A stretch of DNA of 64,000 bases from Vermamoeba vermiformis (GCA_045837725.1 JBEWZL010000236.1:124001-188000), one strand, 5' to 3'; shown: positions 7,963-17,100, numbered from the stretch's first letter. The notes: generated from the letters alone by a model not told the origin. Program-made: numbers and translations.

Positions 7963-10326
7963 ATGTCCCAATATCGTCACTTCAGAGATTTGGCGCGGGT
8001 AGGACACGGCGCACTGTTGGTGTTTGAGCGTATTTTATCCAAGCCTGGCAGCCACAAAATAATTAAGCAAAATATTGCCATTAATTCAGCGCACAAACTA
8101 TTTCCTGATACAAATACGAAACAAGAAACAAAAATTCAGTTGGGTAGTACAGCACCATCCGCCTCTAGTCAGATCCCTTCAGCGACAAATACAACAATAT
8201 TCACTGAAAAATCGCCTATCCAACCACTCAATGATAAGCTGTCGGTGTCTTCAGTTGACACGCAGACAGATCGTGCCCGCACTAGAAATTTGGTAATACG
8301 TGTTGATACACACGAATGACTTCCGTCTAACACCATACTATATAGGAGCTCAATGGTGATGCCCGCGAACGAGCGGTGCCATCCACGCGCATTGGCCGAA
8401 TGTGGCATTTGGGAGGTCTCGCAGCTAGTGTTGGTGCAAGTCTCATGGGCCAGCGATTGAAGCGATCAGTGGGCCTGGGCAGCGATGCAGACCCTGCTGC
8501 TACATTCTTCAGCGAGTCTAATGCCAAGAAGTAAGTGCCCCAAGGCATTGGGTGGATCTGACCGATTATAGGTTGGCTGACACGTTGTCGCGACTGCGCG
8601 GAGCAGCCCTGAAACTCGGTCAAATGATCAGCATTCAAGGTACAGTTTGGGCCTATTATTAAACACGACGTATTGATTTGAGCAGATGAAAATTTGTTGC
8701 CACCACAATTCGCCGCGTTGCTGGAACGAATGCGCCAAGGAGCTGACTTTATGCCCTTCAAACAAGTCGAAGTAATACCATTATAATTGCATTCTCACAA
8801 TACAGGCTCAATGATATTGTAACAGAAAGTAATGACGAGTGCTTATGGAGAGGATTGGCGCGACAACTTTAAAGAGTTCAACGAGCGACCAATCGCAGCA
8901 GCATCAATAGGACAGGTACGCGGATTATAGTGTCGGTGTTATATAACACTCGTGTCAGGTACACAAAGCAGTGTTGAAGAGCGGTCAACAAGTGGCAGTT
9001 AAAGTGCAATATCCTGGTGTGGCCAAGAGCATTGACAGTGACTTGAATAACCTCGCGAGTTTGTTGTTGTTTTCAAATTTATTGCCACCAGGACTGTTCC
9101 TCGAAAAGACTATTGAGGTTGCTAAGAAAGAATTGGGCATGGAGACTAATTACGAGAACGAAGCAGCCAATCAAATCAAGTACAAAGAATTAGTTGCAAA
9201 TGGTATGCAAGCTGACTGGCAGTACTTTTGTTGATTATACTTAGAGAGGAGCTTCTACGTGCCTGTTGTCTTCAATGAGCTGACACGCCAGCAAGTGTTG
9301 GTGACTGAGTTTGTCTACGGTGAAAGCTTTGAAACAATCGTCAAAGAGACACAAGAAGTGCGCAATTGGGTTAGTAATCACGCATTGAACAGCATCATCG
9401 ATGTTAATCAGTTGTAGGTGGCTTACAAAGTACTAGAGTTGACATTCAAGGAGCTTTTTGAGTTTAAGTTTATGCAAACGGATCCAAACTGGTCCAACTT
9501 CTTTTTCAACCCTCTGAAGAAAGAGGTTTGTATGCAATTCATCTAAAACGAAGCTAATTTAAGTACAGATTATACTGCTAGATTTTGGAGGTTGTAGACA
9601 ATTCTCAACAGCTTTTGTCGATGATTACATTCGAGTCATTCATGGAGCAATCGTTGGCAACGACAAGGAGGTATTAGAAGCATCGCAGAGGTTGGGCTTT
9701 TTAACAGGAGAAGAGGACGCAGTCATGCAAAAGGTAACTACGAAGGATGGTGTCATTGCAGAAGTCGTCAAGCAAAATAACAAGGTTCCATGGTGTAGTT
9801 GGTTATCACATCTGCTTAACACGCAGTAGGTCCTCGGTTCGATTCCGAGTGGAACCATTTCTTTTTTGCTTTTCTTTTTGCTCACCCCCCTTCTGCACTT
9901 GTTTGCTTTTTATCGTGCCCCTCTCTGTATGACTTAAAAGTTTTGAATTAGGCTCACGTGGGTGTGGCCCGTATGTTGGGAACGCCGTTCAAAAAATCTC
10001 CTCATCCCTTCGACTTCGCCAACCAAAACGTATGTATACGTTGTACTCTGCTCGTTTAACACACTACGCACAGATTTCCAAGGAAGTAGTGTCACTCATT
10101 CCAACAATGAGTCAACATCGACTCGCACCACCACCCGAAGAAACATATACCCTTCACAGGTACAAATATTATTAGATTGGTCGTTCATGAGTGCTAACAC
10201 TTCTTTATCTACAGAAAGCTATCCGGTGCCTTTTCTATTTGTACAAAGTTGAAAGCCAAGATTCATTGCAGTGACATATTTTGGAATATTTACAACGAAT
10301 ACAAGTTTGCTAGCGGAGTGAAATAA
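7963..10326 (+). CDS. COQ8: COQ8/ABC1 (ADCK3/4) atypical kinase, mitochondrial
   Basis: [85 protein letters not shown]. Intron 9734-9951 hosts a tRNA gene. Confidence 0.93.
9740..9924 (+). repeat. tRNA-Val cassette, copy 1 (185 bp; near-identical to 12584-12767)
   Basis: Direct comparison shows identity except one C in a C-run (6 vs 5). Confidence 0.95.
9784..9857 (+). tRNA. tRNA-Val(AAC), within a COQ8 intron
   Basis: Acceptor stem GGTTCCA/TGGAACC plus A discriminator, A box TGGTGTAGTTGG, anticodon loop TTAACAC, T arm CTCGG-TTCGATT-CCGAG, followed by T-runs (Pol III terminator). U27.U43 is mismatched. Confidence 0.97.
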
Positions 10327-10327
10327 A

Positions 10328-11092
10328 TTACTCTTGATTGTCAATTGCATTTCTGTGTGTAATTTTGTTTAATAACTTCCGAGCAACTCGTTGCACAGCG
10401 GCTAAAATGTATGGGAACTGCGCAATCGGCTCGACTGATAACACACCAGTCAATGACAAGCGACACAACAGCGAGTACCTGCGCGTAAAAGAGTTAGAAG
10501 AATTGCGACACGGTGAATCTGCAGCGAGTACTTGTAGTATGAGAGGGTCCACGGATTGTACACAGCATTGCCATGCTGCTTCGCGAACATATTGCGCTTA
10601 TAATTTGTAAACATTAGCCGCTCGAGCAGTGTCTTCAGCACCGTTAATATCGCCCCTGAGATGAGTGCGCTGTACACTGCTTGCTTGCGATCTGTTCGCT
10701 GCTCAGTGCCTTCTTCGTCAAAGTAACTCTCATAGGCCACATAGCGCACCACACCAACCTATGCGCCCAATTAATCTGAGTGATTCACCAGCAGTTGGAT
10801 GTAACTTACGACTACAAAAGATAGCAGAGACTTGCGCAAGTCAAAATTGAACACTACGGGCAGCAAACTGACAGCGTACGAGAGTGCGTGCGTGAGGGAC
10901 ACGAATTCAATGTCGACCAAGCGCAGTGTCGAGTAGTCCAGACGGCGCACAGGAATCAATCGCTCTGACACTCTACTCGCACATCAATATCTCGTTGCAA
11001 ATACAGGTGTAGCTGTTGTTACCTGTGCTGTTGCAGGCCTGCATTCCACGATTCAATGCGACGCCTGTGCCGTTCTTGGCGCTTGAATTCAT
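10328..11092 (-). CDS. Hypothetical membrane protein
   Basis: ATG 11092 and splice-consistent exons (ORFs 10771-10971, 10450-10752, 10328-10552) with several hydrophobic segments. No family recognised. Confidence 0.55.
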
Positions 11093-11558
11093 TTTCACGC
11101 TGCTTGTGCTGATACAATTCAAAGTACAATTGCTTTTGATTCGTATTCCGTTCTAAGTTGCAATCTTCCCACGTGTTAATAATAAAATGGTGCCATAATT
11201 GATTATCGTCCGCTAATTTGTTCCTAATAATCCAATAATTAGTAAATTATGCCTGATTGCATGTTATGAATTATGTTAATAATTATTAATAATATCTTCA
11301 ATATTGATGTCACAGCGCCATCATACCACCGCACGGAAACAAGCTCGCAGCGAAGAATTTGTTGTGGCGATAGAAAAGAAAATACGTAGCAAATAATTTC
11401 CTCGGGTAATGTGTCCATCGCTGTGCGACAAAAATGACGAAGTAAATTTCGGCGCCGCTTATTTCCGCTCAGTTCTTTGGCACGTGCCTGACCTCACCCG
11501 ACGAACTGGCCAGTTTCATCTTTCAACGCTTGCATCGACAACAACAGCACTAATAAGA

Positions 11559-14061
11559 ATGACCGAAAAGAAGTCAATATTAGTGTTGTTTGGTTCCGAA
11601 ACAGGCAACTGCGAGTCCATCTCGAAACGCATCCACCAAGAAGCTTTAGGTTTAGGTTATGATAGCAAGTGGCATAAACTTAATGACTTTAAGAAGGTTC
11701 GTCAAAAGAAAAGAATTATTGGTGCTCTCATTTCCGAAAATATTGACAATTAAAATTTAATTAATTTCCGACCAGATCGGATTGGACACGAACCCTTGGC
11801 CGAACACAGTTATTATTGTAACCTCAAGCACTGGAAATGGAGATCCACCAGAGAACGGCGAGAAGTGAGTTCAACCGTAAATTTTATTAGCAGCTTTATT
11901 ATTAACAGCTTTCAACAGTTTTTGGTTGTTTATTGGTAAAAAGACTCATTCCAATACGATGCTTGCCAACGTTAGCTTCTCGATGCTCGGTAAGTGTCAA
12001 CGATCCGTTTGAGATCGCGTACTGAGACGGCTGGATCAGGTCTTGGCGACACCAATTACGACACTTATCAAGGCTTTCCGCGCAAGTTGTACAAGAGATT
12101 GCTTGAATTAGGAGCAAAACCATTCCAAGAGCGTTGTGAAGCGGATGAAGCAACGGGGTACGTTGAATGTTCTGCAGGTAGCACAATACTCAACCTTGCT
12201 TGCCAGACTGGAGGAGACAGTAGAGCCTTATGTTACTGAGTTGTGGTCCGCTTTAGAGACGCACTTTAAGTCGTTACAGAAACAAGTTGTTGAAGTGCCA
12301 CCCCAGCCAAAAGAAACGACAAACCCAGCCCCCGTCGAGAAGAAGAAAAGCAGCAAGCTAAAGGATATCATCAAAAAAAAGAAAGAAAAGGAAAAAGCTG
12401 AAGGAACTACTGAAAAGCCAGTGCTGGAGTCGGTGCAGGACCATTCCGTACCCAAACCTCCCTCGCAAACTTGCAAGGTCGTATTCACAGAAACGTACTC
12501 CAAAGAACTGCCCATGCATGCTACATTGGTAGAAGCAAGAAAATTGACTACACGAGAGGTAAGGAACTGAAATCAGTAATCGCACGAAGGATGGTGTCAT
12601 TGCAGAAGTCGTCAAGCAAAATAACAAGGTTCCATGGTGTAGTTGGTTATCACATCTGCTTAACACGCAGTAGGTCCTCGGTTCGATTCCGAGTGGAACC
12701 ATTTCTTTTTTGCTTTTCTTTTTGCTCACCCCCTTCTGCACTTGTTTGCTTTTTATCGTGCCCCTCTTTGTTGCTGACTCCAAACTTATTGTTAGGCGGT
12801 GAAGCAAGTGTGGGAAATGACACTTGATGTGGGTCGTGAGATCCGTTACAAAGTTGGTGATTCCATTGGAGTTGTATTTCCAAACAACGAAGAGGTCGTC
12901 GATAAGCTTATTGCCCACTTGAAACTTAATCCAGATGCTCTTTTGTCCATTGAGCCACTTGATGCCTCCGCAGACAAAAGTAAGTTCTCCGTGTGCCGAC
13001 CAGTACGTACTGACCCTCGCAACAGCGATCCTGCCTACTCATATTAAGACCCCGTGCTCTGTGCGTGAGGCATTTTTGCGCTACTGTGACATCCAAGCAC
13101 TTCCTTCCAAGCGGTTCTTGCGCATGCTAGCTGACTACAGCGCCGCGGAAGACAAAGAAAAGCTCATTCACATGTGCAGCACTAAGGGTCGCGATGACTA
13201 CGTGCAAGAGATTGAAGCAGCGCGTTTGACACTGCTGGAGCTCTTGGAACGATTCCCCAGCTGTCAACCACCCCTCGCGCACTTGTTTGACAGTTTGCCA
13301 CCACTCAAGCCCCGCTACTATTCCATCGCCAGCTCACCCCTCGTGCATCAACAACGCGCACACTTTGCATTTACTGTCGTTGATGTGCCCATTCCCAACA
13401 CATCGCGTCGCTGGAAGGGCACGTGTTCCAATTGGCTGGCGGAGCTGTGTGCCGTGAAGACGCAGTTCCCCAAACTGACCGTGCGTGTGCCGATATTTGC
13501 ACACCCCACCAAGGACTTTGTATTGCCTGCCAATCACGCCACGCCGATCATCATGGTTGGTCCTGGCACGGGTGTTGCGCCGTTCATTGGCTTCTTGGAA
13601 GAGCGACGTCAGATCCAGCAACAGCAGCCTGCGCACAAGTTGGGCGCGAGTTGGCTGTTCTTTGGCTGTCGACACCCCGACTACGACTACTTGTACCGCA
13701 CTCAGCTCGAGGAGTTTGAGCGTAACGGCACGCTCACTAAGCTCGTGACTGCATTCAGTCGCTTGGAGGAGAACAAGGTGGTCTATGTACAACATCGCTT
13801 GCAAGAGTATTCGAACGACATTTTGGATCTGATGCTCAATAACAACGCTCACTTCTACATCTGCGGGTATGTGACGCATTACGCATGAATTTTACCGCCG
13901 TACTAACGACAATTAGTGATGCAAGCGGAATGGCCAAGGCAGTCCGCGAGACTTTAGTGCAGATCCTCAAAGATCAAGGAGGCAAGAGTGAGAGCGAAGC
14001 ACACGACACAATCACGTCATGGAGTCAGGCTAAACGATTCGTTTTGGATATTTGGTCGTAA
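11559..14061 (+). CDS. MTRR: Diflavin (FMN/FAD/NADPH) oxidoreductase, methionine synthase reductase-like
   Basis: Flavodoxin motifs LFGSETGN, SSTGNGDPPEN and LGLGDTNY; PRYYSIASS; MVGPGTGVAPF; LFFGCR; YVQH; YICG|DA; C-terminal DIWS*. Intron 12559-12795 hosts a tRNA gene. Confidence 0.85.
12584..12767 (+). repeat. tRNA-Val cassette, copy 2 (184 bp)
   Basis: Near-identical to 9740-9924. Confidence 0.95.
12628..12701 (+). tRNA. tRNA-Val(AAC), within an MTRR intron
   Basis: Identical to the copy at 9784-9857, with a downstream T-run. Confidence 0.97.
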
Positions 14062-14130
14062 ATAACAATGTACAAAGCACGCGGATTAAATTTGAATTGT
14101 TTTTACATTTACATGAGTTTAATTACAAGA

Positions 14131-17100
14131 TTAAGACTTCTTTTCATTGAGTCCTTTTGGTGCTTCGGCTTTAAATAGCTCCGCGTGATCGAGCAGATAG
14201 TTCTCGCCCTTCTCTAGCAGCCAATTAACAGCCAGATCTGCTTTGTCTTGGTTGAGCGACAGAGCTTTGACGTAGAGTGCTAATGGGAAGCCAGGCACTA
14301 CGTCTTGCAAGCTCAGCGCACTCTCCCACCGCTTCACCTCCTTTTCATCGACTTTCTTCTCCTCAGGAGTGACAGGGGCGTCACTCGAGCTCAGTTCGAG
14401 CGGCGTGTTCGGATCCAGTGCCTGCAACTCTTTCTTCAACTCGTCGACGAGCTTCTGCAACTTGTCGAGGTGGCCAGGGCTCTTCGATTCCTTGGCCTCC
14501 TTGATCCACTGCTGGCACTGTTGCATGATCTCCAAGCGCTTCAATTTGAAGTGCGTCTTAGCCACCTCTTCAAAGCCCAGTGGTGGATTGCGGATCTGCT
14601 CCAGCATGGCCCAACGAATAGTCGCGAGACGAATTACCTCATTGTACTGACGGGACTGCTGCTCGCCCTTGGGTGTGTTCATAGAGGACTCGTAGCCTGG
14701 CTCGTTGAAGTAGGGCTTGTCGACCAAGATGAGCGACTGAATGGACACGAACACTTGCAGCAGCGTCGATGTGCTCTCGTTCCACTTCTCGTTCGGTCCT
14801 CCGCGCCACGTGCCAAGCAGCGACAGACACACCTTGCCGCAGTTGTACAAGTTGGGATTGAAGCGCACTGTGCCGTTACCCGTGGTCTGCAAGTTGATGA
14901 CGGGTGGTACGGCAGGGTATTCGGGCGGACAATAGACGTCAAATTCGAAGAAACCATTCATGTAGGGCGTGTCTTTGGGGCCTGTGATGACGCACTTGAG
15001 CACGTCCATGCGATCACTGTCCACGCGCAAGAAGACAGACGAGTCAGGGAAGAGCGGCAGACCAGTGCTGAGCGAGCCGACTTCTTGCACCAAGCGCTTC
15101 ATCTTCTTCGGGGCACTGCTCGTGTCACTCTTGATGCGTGACTTGTAGTGGTGTTTGTAGTCGCCGCTGTCGTCTTTCATGGAGAGCTCGTCGAACTGTA
15201 GCTCAGCAAGCTGTTCTTGATACAAGCGCGAGAACTCGAGCTCTTTCTCCTTGGCACTGTCGAGAGGTTGAGTGGTCGACTGCGCGGGCTGCAAGGGCTG
15301 TTTGTGCGCGACAGTCTTGGCTCTGTGATCGAGCACACGCTGTTTGACCAAGAGCTGTGTCTTGCTGATCTCAATGGCCAGTGTGATCTCGTCCTCTTCG
15401 CTCGACTGTTCTTTCTTCTGCGGCGTGCTGCTCTCCAAGCGACTCTTGGGCAGTCGTTTCAAGATGACATCTGCCATTGTGTGCAATTTGTGCAGCAGAT
15501 CGAACAGCGAGACCGACTGATTGGGCAGTTCATCAGCGAGATGCACCAGAGCGTCGTGCAGCACTAGTGCGCGTGTGGTCTTGAGCACAGCTGTGTAGAG
15601 ATCAAAGTGGCGACCCATGTCGAGCAGCGAGTCATTGCGCAAGTACGAGCCCAACACAGGCACGAGACTGCTCGCGGCAATGAGTTGATAGGCCTCGGTG
15701 CTGAGTGCTGGCTGTGCGTGCTCGAGGGGCTCAGCTGTGACCGCTAAGAAGCCCTGCACACCTTCCAGCAGTGTGGCAATCTTCTTGGCGAGGGCTGTCT
15801 GTTCTTTCACATACGCCTCGTGGCTCCACGTGACTGGTGCCGTGTCGTCTGCATTGGTGCCGTAGCCAGTGCCCTTCGCCCAGAACTTGCCGTCAGAGCC
15901 ATTCTGTGCCTTGGCTGCTTTGTCTTGACGGTCTTTTTGCCGTGACCTCCACTTGTCCACTGCCGCGCTGAATGCAGGGTGCTCGGGATCACGTGGTGCA
16001 GTGTCGCAGAAGTCGGTGAGCAGCGAGAGCAGTGCAGCGAGCACGCCTGCTTGCATCACTTCACTACGCACGCGCAGACTGTCCTCGGCCACGCTGTGCT
16101 GCGAGGTGCGCAAGAGATCAAACAGCGCGCTCAACAAGGGCTGCATGGGATTGGCCAGCAGTGCCTCGCTCGGTGTGGGTACTGCAGCGAGACCTAGTCG
16201 CTCGCTAATGTCGCGCACAGGACCAGTCTTGACGTCTTGTGCCTCAGTCATGACGCGGAACAGGAGGGCGCGGCAGTCACTGTCACGCACGAACATCTGC
16301 ACGAAGCCAGTCACTTGCAGCTCTTTGCGCAACAGTTGCAGCCACGTGCGCCACGTTGCAATGTCAGTCTCTTTGCTCTTGGTCTTGGCGTCACTCGGTG
16401 TGCTCGTGCTCTCTTTCTTCTGCAAGTGCGTGTCAATCATGTCCACGAGCTGGGCCAGACCTCCTTTGTCTGCAAATCTCTTCAGCACTGAGCCGACTTG
16501 ATCGCTCACGCCACTTGCGGTGGGTCGAATGGCACGCACACTGCTGCAAAGATTACTGTCAGTCGATGATTGGCTGCTATTTATAGCTTGAACTTACCGC
16601 TCATCGTCACGCTTGATGATCTCAATGTTGAGATCCACGAGTTCAGAGCCAGAGCCGACCAGACGATGCAAGTCAAGCATGGTGAGCTGTGACTGCAGCA
16701 CTGTGTCAGGCTGGCCAGGCAGTTGGAAGAGTGCCACCACGCCTTCAGGGTCCGTGGCGGTGAGGGACTCCGCGAGCTGTGCCAGAGTGGTGGTTGCGGG
16801 CACATTGAAGAGAGGAGCAGAGCGCTGATAAGTGAGGGGATTGGAGCTGTTCAGCTTGGTGGCCCACAACACGCCTTGCTTGGCCGTGGGACCTTCAATC
16901 TCCCTGAATCTCACGCGATCACCGACGTCGTAGAGCGAGACAGCGGGATAGAGTTCAAAGCCCGCGAGTCCCGTGCTGAATGCCACGCCGAGATCTTCAC
17001 CGTTGCGCGTGAAGGCCAGTGTGCCCTCGTCCATGTCGAGCGTGACACCGATCACATCGCCCTCCTTCATCTTCTGTCCGTACTGACTGTTGGACTTGCC

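Follow-up and report, generated by a model that had tools for sequence, protein, structure and literature searches.

The locus raises the question of how one tRNA-Val(AAC) gene, together with the DNA on both of its sides, came to occupy introns of two unrelated protein-coding genes that are near neighbors in Vermamoeba vermiformis. An initial annotation of the window (the whole stretch of 64,000 nucleotides analyzed here) had proposed a mobile or homogenised cassette that uses introns as safe harbours. Our best reading is that the pair reflects a real but ordinary one-off local duplication of DNA and not a mobile element family. The relevant features are listed below.

7963-10326, plus strand: ABC1/COQ8-like gene with 12 exons and 11 introns (PF03109 ABC1, E 1.1e-23)
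9734-9951, plus strand: COQ8 intron 9, 218 nt, GT..AG, which holds copy 1 (QK/AHV bridged by protein P0001)
9740-9924, plus strand: repeat copy 1, 185 bp (44 bp of upstream flank, the tRNA, and 67 bp of downstream flank)
9784-9857, plus strand: tRNA-Val(AAC) gene, copy 1 (ARAGORN; Rfam RF00005, 63.4 bits)
9858-9867, plus strand: Pol III terminator of copy 1, TTT C TTTTTT right behind the tRNA (read from the sequence)
10328-11493, minus strand: intervening F-box gene, 3' end provisional (PF12937 F-box-like, E 9.3e-11; ORF list)
11239-11493, minus strand: F-box exon, with ATG at 11418
11559-14061, plus strand: methionine synthase reductase-like gene, MTRR (PF00667 and PF00175; exon matches to a homologue)
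12559-12795, plus strand: MTRR intron, 237 nt, GT..AG, which holds copy 2 (TRE/AVK contiguous in protein P0125)
12584-12767, plus strand: repeat copy 2, 184 bp
12628-12701, plus strand: tRNA-Val(AAC) gene, copy 2, same sequence as copy 1 (ARAGORN; Rfam RF00005, 63.4 bits)
12702-12711, plus strand: the same T-run behind tRNA copy 2 (read from the sequence)

The domain matches agree with the initial assignment of the hosts as COQ8 and MTRR. The spliced COQ8 model (559 aa) matches P0001, the spliced COQ8 protein of a relative, at 487 of 561 aligned columns, and P0001 is continuous across the junction 9733/9952. Named matches to the MTRR-like gene are methionine synthase reductases from mixed eukaryotes (~43% identity). 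In a separate comparison of one conserved exon, the best named matches were from chytrid and other fungi (61-67%). Across the junction 12558/12796, SED/AKKQV in the MTRR homologue P0125 aligns to TRE/AVKQV (residues 237-239 / 240). With homologous proteins bridging both exon junctions and GT..AG ends on both introns, the two tRNA genes are intronic (nested). The intron coordinates and lengths that had been proposed are confirmed, as is the rejoining of both protein frames, and the placement of both copies in the sense orientation of their hosts is borne out by the tRNA strands and the intron models.

Both introns are several times the usual size, as the initial annotation had noted: the remaining ten COQ8 introns span 41-55 nt and the one RNA-supported MTRR intron is 79 nt. 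The splice sites of both introns and a branch-point-like TGAC fall outside the repeat. Without the repeat, the MTRR intron would comprise 53 nt (25+28), which falls among the lengths of the other 11 introns (41-79 nt), and the COQ8 intron 33 nt (6+27), under the minimum of 41. Because the COQ8 remnant is shorter than this minimum, the repeat probably includes some original COQ8 intron sequence. Judged by intron length, the repeat was probably resident in the COQ8 intron first and reached the MTRR intron later. The 27-nt intron tails behind the repeats align with a score of 6, tied for the highest, and 3 of 78 intron pairs reach this score. Somewhat similar tails would also suit an older, larger homology.

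Screening of the 64-kb window with ARAGORN revealed two tRNA genes in total, both tRNA-Val(AAC), 74 nt in length and with a cloverleaf and defined anticodon. Rfam recovered the same two (63.4 bits versus a gathering score of 29 for RF00005) and nothing else in the window above gathering score. As expected of a type 2 Pol III unit, each gene carries A and B boxes within the tRNA, with GGTTCGATTCC in the T arm matching the B-box consensus, and is followed by a T-run. At least four consecutive T residues mark the end of Pol III transcription; in copy 1 a T6 run is located at 9862-9867, 4 nt after the tRNA, and ~57 bp of the repeat extend beyond it. Positions 9740-9889 and 12584-12733 are identical (100% over 150 nt), the repeat resumes past a homopolymer difference (C6/C5) and extends to 9924/12767, and the first substitution outside it is 9925 c versus 12768 t. 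The alignment thereby reproduces the initial description of 44 bp upstream and ~67 bp downstream with the tRNA between them, and of copies that differ by just one C in a homopolymer. No other copies, even degenerate ones, were detected in the 64-kb window, where the best other blastn-short matches were <=15 nt (E >=0.19).

Copy number was evaluated from the unitig depths of one short-read run (X1), among the unitigs listed; X1 may be the sample from which the window was assembled. Each of the four junctions between repeat and unique sequence is carried by an X1 unitig at single-copy depth (435, 454.5, 454.5, and 330.8), including, at copy 2, one unitig that ends at 12613 and one that begins at 12738. 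Both repeat copies are real. The unitig of the upstream flank (9740-9808) has a depth of 837.2, compared to 435 and 454.5 in the adjoining unique unitigs (ratio ~1.9), and since the unique unitigs lie between 330.8 and 454.5, the upstream flank is present in two copies. The tRNA body is present in roughly 8 copies (depths of 3506.9 and 3634.8 for unitigs 9779-9837 and 9808-9860). Among the unitigs listed, loose ends of 249-255 letters occur before 9784, 12618, and 12628 and behind 9870, and other tRNA-Val loci run into unrelated flanks, so that the shared flanks are special to this pair. The 8-10 nt immediately before the tRNA recur at one or more of the other tRNA-Val loci, judging from loose ends at 12618 (X1) and 9774 (X8). 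The initial annotation had set two outcomes against its own proposal, namely a mis-assembly and a pair with no further copies and no empty sites. The first is contradicted by the single-copy-depth unitigs that carry all four junctions, and on the second, a total of two copies is what the flank depth indicates, as far as it can be tested.

Other runs and searches added to this picture in part. An independent run of low coverage (X5; 2.6-7x depth) yielded a contig, 9774-10602, that joins tRNA copy 1, the downstream flank, and the COQ8 3' exons. Upstream of 9774 this contig continues into 1856 nt unlike the window, which we take for a path chosen by the assembler within the 8-copy tRNA at such low depth (2.6-7x); a real structural difference would also give this pattern. 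X5 covers nothing over 11265-12574, the MTRR intron falls outside the coverage of both X5 and X8, and X8, whose sequences are 95-99% alike, has no depth on the flanks of either intron. From an RNA run labelled as the same species (X23), 66 reads were placed, 50 of which were 90-95% alike (a relative), with zero depth on the COQ8 exons adjoining intron 9 and on the MTRR exons around copy 2. The sole splice joint seen in X23 was 11694>11774, and its few reads on the tRNA carried a different upstream flank. In metagenomes, a search for the MTRR homologue with a 321-aa ORF as query matched 153 pattern stretches, none of which was confirmed by tblastn. A degenerate pattern for the COQ8 exon-end peptide matched three metagenomic loci, none of which encodes COQ8 or carries a tRNA, and these were rejected as chance matches.

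The setting of the two introns is compact. The divergent F-box and MTRR start codons are separated by 140 nt, the MTRR stop is 69 nt from that of the next, oppositely oriented ORF, and a single nucleotide separates the COQ8 stop from that of a facing minus-strand ORF (putatively part of the F-box gene). Because these three measurable gaps between coding regions are all <= ~140 nt, introns are likely to hold most, and probably nearly all, of the non-coding DNA in this stretch. The suggestion that introns serve as safe harbours therefore loses its appeal: where introns are most of the non-coding DNA available, no special mechanism is needed.

We consider it quite probable that the pair arose when a 185-bp segment holding an ordinary Pol III tRNA-Val(AAC) gene was duplicated ectopically at the DNA level, once and recently. 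The two copies are close in cis, have sharp boundaries, and lack element features. The segment, made up of this gene, the region just upstream of it, and its terminator, would have been copied in direct orientation from intron to intron over a cis distance of 2.84 kb, with the COQ8 intron as the probable donor and the MTRR intron as the recipient. Both copies would be intronic because introns are most of the DNA that tolerates a 185-bp insertion in so compact a stretch. The copy was likely made during break repair or by replication template switching, with the nearby tRNA unit as template. Microhomology that might point to a particular repair route is absent from the left junction, and the right one offers no more than TGT behind a single mismatch. 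PMC2888827 (Bermudez-Santana et al. 2010) lists local DNA duplications as the 'prime suspects' behind tRNA pairs and describes tRNA genes as fork-pause sites tied to instability. Each copy is most likely an autonomous nested Pol III gene, as predicted from its anatomy, and the duplication would have raised the dosage of tRNA-Val(AAC) genes from ~7 to ~8.

Since 44 bp upstream of the tRNA and ~57 bp past T6 are included in the copied unit, what was copied was DNA and not Pol III RNA, which upholds the initial view that this is no retroposed Pol III transcript.

The duplication could instead be old and the copies kept identical by ongoing gene conversion between them, which corresponds to the 'homogenised' cassette of the initial annotation. 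This is improbable, although a spacing of 2.84 kb and direct orientation would favor conversion and tRNA families are described, in a passage of PMC4981973, as subject to concerted or birth-death evolution. The intron tails outside the repeat also align slightly better than those of most pairs (tied first among 78); however, two other, unrelated intron pairs score equally. Furthermore, at either end of the repeat identity falls off from 100% to the background level over a few bases, and because conversion cannot create flank homology where none existed, a duplication would still be needed. The 184 shared positions contain no substitutions and one homopolymer indel, on account of which we regard the duplication as recent; as a guide to conversion, zero substitutions in 184 positions are uninformative below ~1.6% divergence (by calculation, P(0) <0.05).

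A low-copy, DNA-level mobile element or an intron-targeting tRNA mechanism, with these as its two sole current insertions or with a third, lost donor, is less likely still. Relative to normal intron size both copies are insertions, both are in sense orientation with the splice signals outside the unit, and PMC4981973 states that tRNA genes 'behave similar to mobile elements'. Sense orientation, however, is automatic for a direct duplicate shared by two same-strand genes, and an intronic location is what compaction predicts. For comparison, 44% of 609 tRNA genes in C. elegans are intronic, a share that the relevant passage of PMC4999229 reports as no different from chance and explains by space. 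The flank is two-copy by X1 depth, the 185 bp have no coding capacity, and the upstream flank had no matches in viral contigs. As initially stated, there is no target-site duplication in the sequence at either copy. Of the inverted pair GCACGA/TCGTGC that had been placed at the ends of copy 2, the 6-bp match itself stands, but one arm is internal to the repeat and the pair amounts to a chance-level match of 4-6 nt: TCGTGC stops 6 nt short of the repeat end in both copies, and of GCACGA just the first two letters, GC, are peculiar to copy 2, ACGA/TCGT being common to both. A repeat search returned no inverted pairs >=40 nt.

Three classes of element were considered individually and rejected. 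A SINE or other retroposed Pol III transcript does not fit a unit with copied upstream and post-terminator DNA, no A-tail, no target-site duplication, and a two-copy flank. A DNA transposon or MITE does not fit the lack of terminal inverted repeats and target-site duplication or the 2x flank depth. An introner element does not fit splice sites and a TGAC outside the repeat, a normal-looking MTRR intron of 53 nt that remains without it, and only two copies. The claim of a mobile or dispersed cassette is thus not sustained, the flank being two-copy by depth and transposon hallmarks being absent. Comparably unlikely is a broader scenario in which the tRNA units of this lineage spread preferentially from intron to intron by DNA copying and are expressed in step with their hosts. 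If it held, the pair would mark the latest in a series of such events, the earlier products of which have lost their common flanks, and host-promoter licensing or processing of spliced introns would couple the additional supply of tRNA-Val to two metabolic housekeeping genes.

There is very little probability that the tRNAs derive from host pre-mRNA introns (by way of Pol II, splicing, and RNase P/Z), with their supply dependent on COQ8 and MTRR expression. In favor of this route, the two intronic copies read in the same sense as their hosts, and the text of PMC4999229 raises it as a theoretical possibility for intronic tRNAs of C. elegans and notes that host promoters influence their expression. 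Against it, the T6 terminator 4 nt after the tRNA and the retained B box look like those of an ordinary Pol III unit, and because an intact terminator follows the tRNA, the anatomy does not suggest output coupled to splicing. In addition, at least one other tRNA-Val locus has the same 8-10 nt upstream, as in an ordinary Pol III unit, and ~6 further tRNA copies lie outside the flanks of these introns. That one copy is an assembly artefact is extremely unlikely: the near-identity of the repeats and the chance that X1, the best DNA run, is the assembly's own source speak for it, but the junctions are at single-copy depth with the shared flank at double, both host frames rejoin exactly as in homologues, and the independent X5 contig ties copy 1 and its downstream flank to the COQ8 3' exons.

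Read as a one-off duplication, the pair has little consequence beyond annotation. It provides a clean, datable case of a tRNA family that gained a member when a 185-bp DNA copy entered a neighboring intron of a very compact genome, and it suggests that in such genomes introns are simply the places where new Pol III genes can survive. It would carry more weight only if most tRNA genes here were intronic and in sense orientation, or if the copies depended on host transcription.

tRNA-derived SINEs are multi-copy, lack the upstream DNA of their donor, and have tails and target-site duplications, and introner elements are multi-copy and bring or create splice sites. The locus resembles these in having tRNA-related sequence in introns, or a link to oversized or new introns; it differs in its two copies, its included upstream DNA, the lack of a tail or duplication, and splice sites outside the unit. 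In templated insertions ('filler DNA') at repaired breaks or during template switching, a short, nearby cis template is copied to a second site. Sharp boundaries without target-site duplication or element-encoded functions are shared with such insertions, although 185 bp is long for typical polymerase-theta filler and the junctions show no clear microhomology. The pair is also consistent with eukaryotic tRNA turnover as outlined in PMC2888827 and PMC4981973 (Velandia-Huerto et al. 2016), where local and non-local DNA copies produce near-identical paralogues over short time-scales. Unlike usual local tRNA duplications, the segment is very short (185 bp), and instead of lying in tandem the copy is 2.8 kb distant, with an entire gene in between. 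The nearest parallel in anatomy is with the nested tRNAs of C. elegans, where, according to PMC4999229 (Sagi et al. 2016), whole tRNA genes reside inside spliceosomal introns of unrelated protein-coding genes, host orientation is common (56%), and the intronic share follows from available space. In contrast to C. elegans, the introns here are tiny and largely filled by the tRNA unit, and the identical tRNA and flanks in two adjacent hosts show that the copy event was very recent.

Exactly two tRNA genes were identified by ARAGORN in the 64-kb window, both tRNA-Val(AAC), and screening of the window with Rfam at gathering score returned no match beyond these two RF00005 tRNAs:

9784-9857, + strand, tRNA-Val(AAC) copy 1 (ARAGORN; Rfam RF00005, 63.4 bits)
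12628-12701, + strand, tRNA-Val(AAC) copy 2 (ARAGORN; Rfam RF00005, 63.4 bits)

Both genes lie within a direct repeat in which 9740-9889 and 12584-12733 are 100% identical over 150 nt; a C6 versus C5 homopolymer follows, after which identity resumes up to 9924/12767. The earliest substitution past the repeat is c at 9925 versus t at 12768. The repeat alignment thus agrees with the initial annotation, which had described a unit with flanks of 44 bp upstream and 67 bp downstream around the 74-nt tRNA, and copies that differ only by one homopolymer C; the alignment has 0 substitutions in 184 positions. No further copy of either flank, even degenerate, was found in the 64 kb, where other blastn-short matches were ≤15 nt (E ≥0.19).

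To evaluate the assembly of the pair, Logan unitigs of X1, a DNA run in which 97% of the words sampled are present and which is possibly the sample behind the assembly itself, were mapped onto 9300-13200. One unitig (5816 nt; depth 435) ends at 9769, another (2719 nt; depth 454.5) spans 9895-12613, and a third (11491 nt; depth 330.8) begins at 12738. Each unitig end falls exactly 30 nt into the repeat, which is where 31-mers would place it, and the four junctions are therefore genuine. All four repeat/unique junctions are present at single-copy depth in X1, which rules out the pair as an assembly error. The two near-identical intronic tRNA-Val copies are real and had been accurately described.

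In X5, an independent low-depth DNA run, a contig of 2686 nt covering 9774-10602 carries the tRNA (with one extra T at 9861), the downstream flank, and the 3' exons of the ABC1/COQ8-like host gene (COQ8), preceded by 1856 nt unlike 9300-13200. Separate X5 contigs over 9300-9455 and 9462-9713 show no differences from the window. The simplest reading of the divergent upstream part would be an assembly path across the eight-copy tRNA at 2.6-7x depth, the alternative being a real structural difference.

Genome copy number was read from X1 unitig depth. The 69-nt unitig at 9740-9808, comprising the upstream flank and the tRNA's initial 25 nt, has a depth of 837.2, against 435 and 454.5 for the neighbouring unique unitigs (a ratio of 1.84-1.93). 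In contrast, unitigs of the tRNA body (9779-9837, depth 3506.9; 9808-9860, depth 3634.8) are at ~8x single copy, and a variant with T>C at 9834 contributes a depth of 569.7. Further unitigs run into the tRNA out of unrelated sequence (loose ends, 249-255 letters long, before 9784, 12618, and 12628) or run out of it, behind 9870, into sequence that is likewise unrelated. Passage from the tRNA to the downstream flank has a depth of ~1237, by subtraction from totals at 9834 and 9860 (22 unlisted records), which we attribute to the two copies plus perhaps one locus with only the first ~24 T-rich bases (loose end behind 9881). The X1 depths show that the tRNA-Val(AAC) family has ~8 members with differing flanks and that the flanks of copies 1 and 2 are confined to these two members.

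The 8-10 nt immediately 5' of the tRNA (9774-9783 and 12618-12627; ATAACAAG) are common to at least one other tRNA-Val locus, in which sequence farther upstream is unrelated. The bases are marked by loose ends, which start at 12618 in X1; in the water-metagenome run X8, where the sequence is nearly identical, they start at the equivalent position, 9774. These bases could represent a conserved context of Pol III start sites or else the leftover of an older duplication.

The initial annotation had proposed a mobile or homogenised tRNA-Val cassette harboured in introns. A flank depth of ~2x in X1, corresponding to two copies only, contradicts mobility and is the outcome that the initial annotation had itself named as refuting the proposal, and the unrelated flanks of the other tRNA-Val loci argue against a cassette family. 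An introner-type element is ruled out by the splice sites and a branch-point-like TGAC, which lie outside the repeat. Inspection of the repeat ends confirmed that neither copy has a target-site duplication, and revealed no A-rich tail or terminal inverted repeat; an inverted-repeat search of the window returned 0 pairs ≥40 nt. The GCACGA/TCGTGC ends noted earlier hold as 6 nt in copy 2 and 4 nt in copy 1, and the right arm of the pair stops 6 nt short of the repeat end. The upstream flank had no exact match among viral contigs. The pair represents a recent duplication of a nested tRNA gene, ordinary in kind, local, and limited to two copies, rather than a family of mobile cassettes.

Transcription by Pol III stops at a run of T's. 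Here a T3-C-T6 run starts directly 3' of the tRNA, and the unit extends ~57 bp past it as well as 44 bp upstream of the tRNA. The template was therefore DNA rather than a Pol III transcript, as had been argued earlier.

The COQ8 host carries an ABC1 domain (PF03109), and P0001, a publicly sourced protein of 561 aa with 91% identity to COQ8 on one exon, evidently derives from a spliced transcript in a related organism. This protein aligns to 7963-10326 exon by exon, without a break across 9733|9952. The P0001-guided model has 11 GT..AG introns (53, 41, 46, 54, 43, 42, 48, 43, 218, 44, and 55 nt), and its translation agrees with P0001 in 487 of 561 aligned columns. The second host (MTRR) encodes FAD_binding_1 and NAD_binding_1 domains, and among named proteins it is related to methionine synthase reductases (~43% identity); its homolog P0125 is unbroken across 12558|12796 (...SED|AKKQV vs TRE|AVKQV). 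Because both proteins are contiguous across these junctions, the oversized introns 9734-9951 and 12559-12795 are real; they are sense to the tRNA and 4-5x the usual length. One JGI protein is 87% identical overall to COQ8 (7963-10326), the next best matches being from chytrids and other fungi (61-67% on a conserved exon), and matches to MTRR 12923-13888 in the protein collection reach 47% at most. That collection has no close named relative of either region; the organism's lineage is poorly sampled.

Minus the repeat, the MTRR intron is 53 nt (25+28), within the 41-79 nt of the other 11 introns measured, whereas the COQ8 intron is 33 nt (6+27), below every one of them. These lengths suggest that the repeat includes some sequence native to the COQ8 intron, and hence that copying probably went from the COQ8 site (donor) into the MTRR intron (recipient). 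Absence of substitutions in 184 positions implies a divergence < ~1.6% (P(0) < 0.05, calculated); for comparison, X5 and the window show 2 letter differences and 1 gap over 829 nt, and 4 letter differences over 507 nt close by. For the 27-nt intron tails 3' of the repeats the alignment score is 6, a value reached by 3 of 78 intron pairs, and it therefore offers no solid evidence of older, wider homology.

The starting event may have been a break or stalled fork inside the MTRR intron, repaired by copying 185 bp of the tRNA unit from 2.8 kb away. This would have proceeded by synthesis-dependent repair with templated insertion or by replication template switching; the repeat ends show no clear junction microhomology. 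Excerpts of PMC2888827 describe tRNA genes as fork-pause sites linked to instability and name local duplication of DNA as the prime suspect behind tRNA pairs, and an excerpt of PMC4981973 describes local as well as non-local copies spawned by tRNAs.

An opposite-strand F-box gene (PF12937) separates COQ8 and MTRR. Genes are packed extremely closely here: a divergent promoter region of 140 nt (11418-11559) lies between the start codons of the F-box gene and MTRR, the MTRR stop is 69 nt from that of the next, convergent ORF (14061-14133), and 1 nt separates the COQ8 stop (10324-10326) from that of a facing minus-strand ORF (10328-10330). If that ORF, a candidate last exon of the F-box gene, does end it, the COQ8 and F-box 3' UTRs must overlap. 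Because these spacings are so short, non-coding DNA here lies mostly, and probably nearly all, in introns, as judged from the spacings, which would explain why both copies are intronic. The ORF at 14131-16593 (- strand) encodes 820 uninterrupted aa with a UQ_con ubiquitin-conjugating domain (PF00179), in contrast to the nearby intron-rich COQ8, and lies in a block (14-22 kb) with a G+C of 0.54-0.585 versus ~0.42-0.48 elsewhere.

Each tRNA copy has an intact cloverleaf, a terminator, and a B-box that we take to fit the consensus, and both copies therefore look like normal autonomous Pol III genes. In RNA run X23, 66 reads mapped to 9300-13200, 50 of them at 90-95% identity; neither the COQ8 exons next to the tRNA intron nor the MTRR exons on the two sides of copy 2 received any, and the sole splice joint (11694>11774) is in an upstream MTRR intron. 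X23 bears the source run's species label yet matches at 90-95%; either the label spans clearly diverged lineages or the reads are from a related contaminant.

In Caenorhabditis elegans, as described in excerpts of PMC4999229, coupling of intronic tRNAs to host transcription is known, and tRNA processing from spliced introns is a theoretical possibility only. The same excerpts place 44% of 609 tRNA genes in introns, no different from chance, with 56% of the intronic ones in host orientation. Copies 1 and 2 resemble these nested tRNAs in being intronic, and their sense orientation is an automatic consequence of direct duplication between two same-strand genes.
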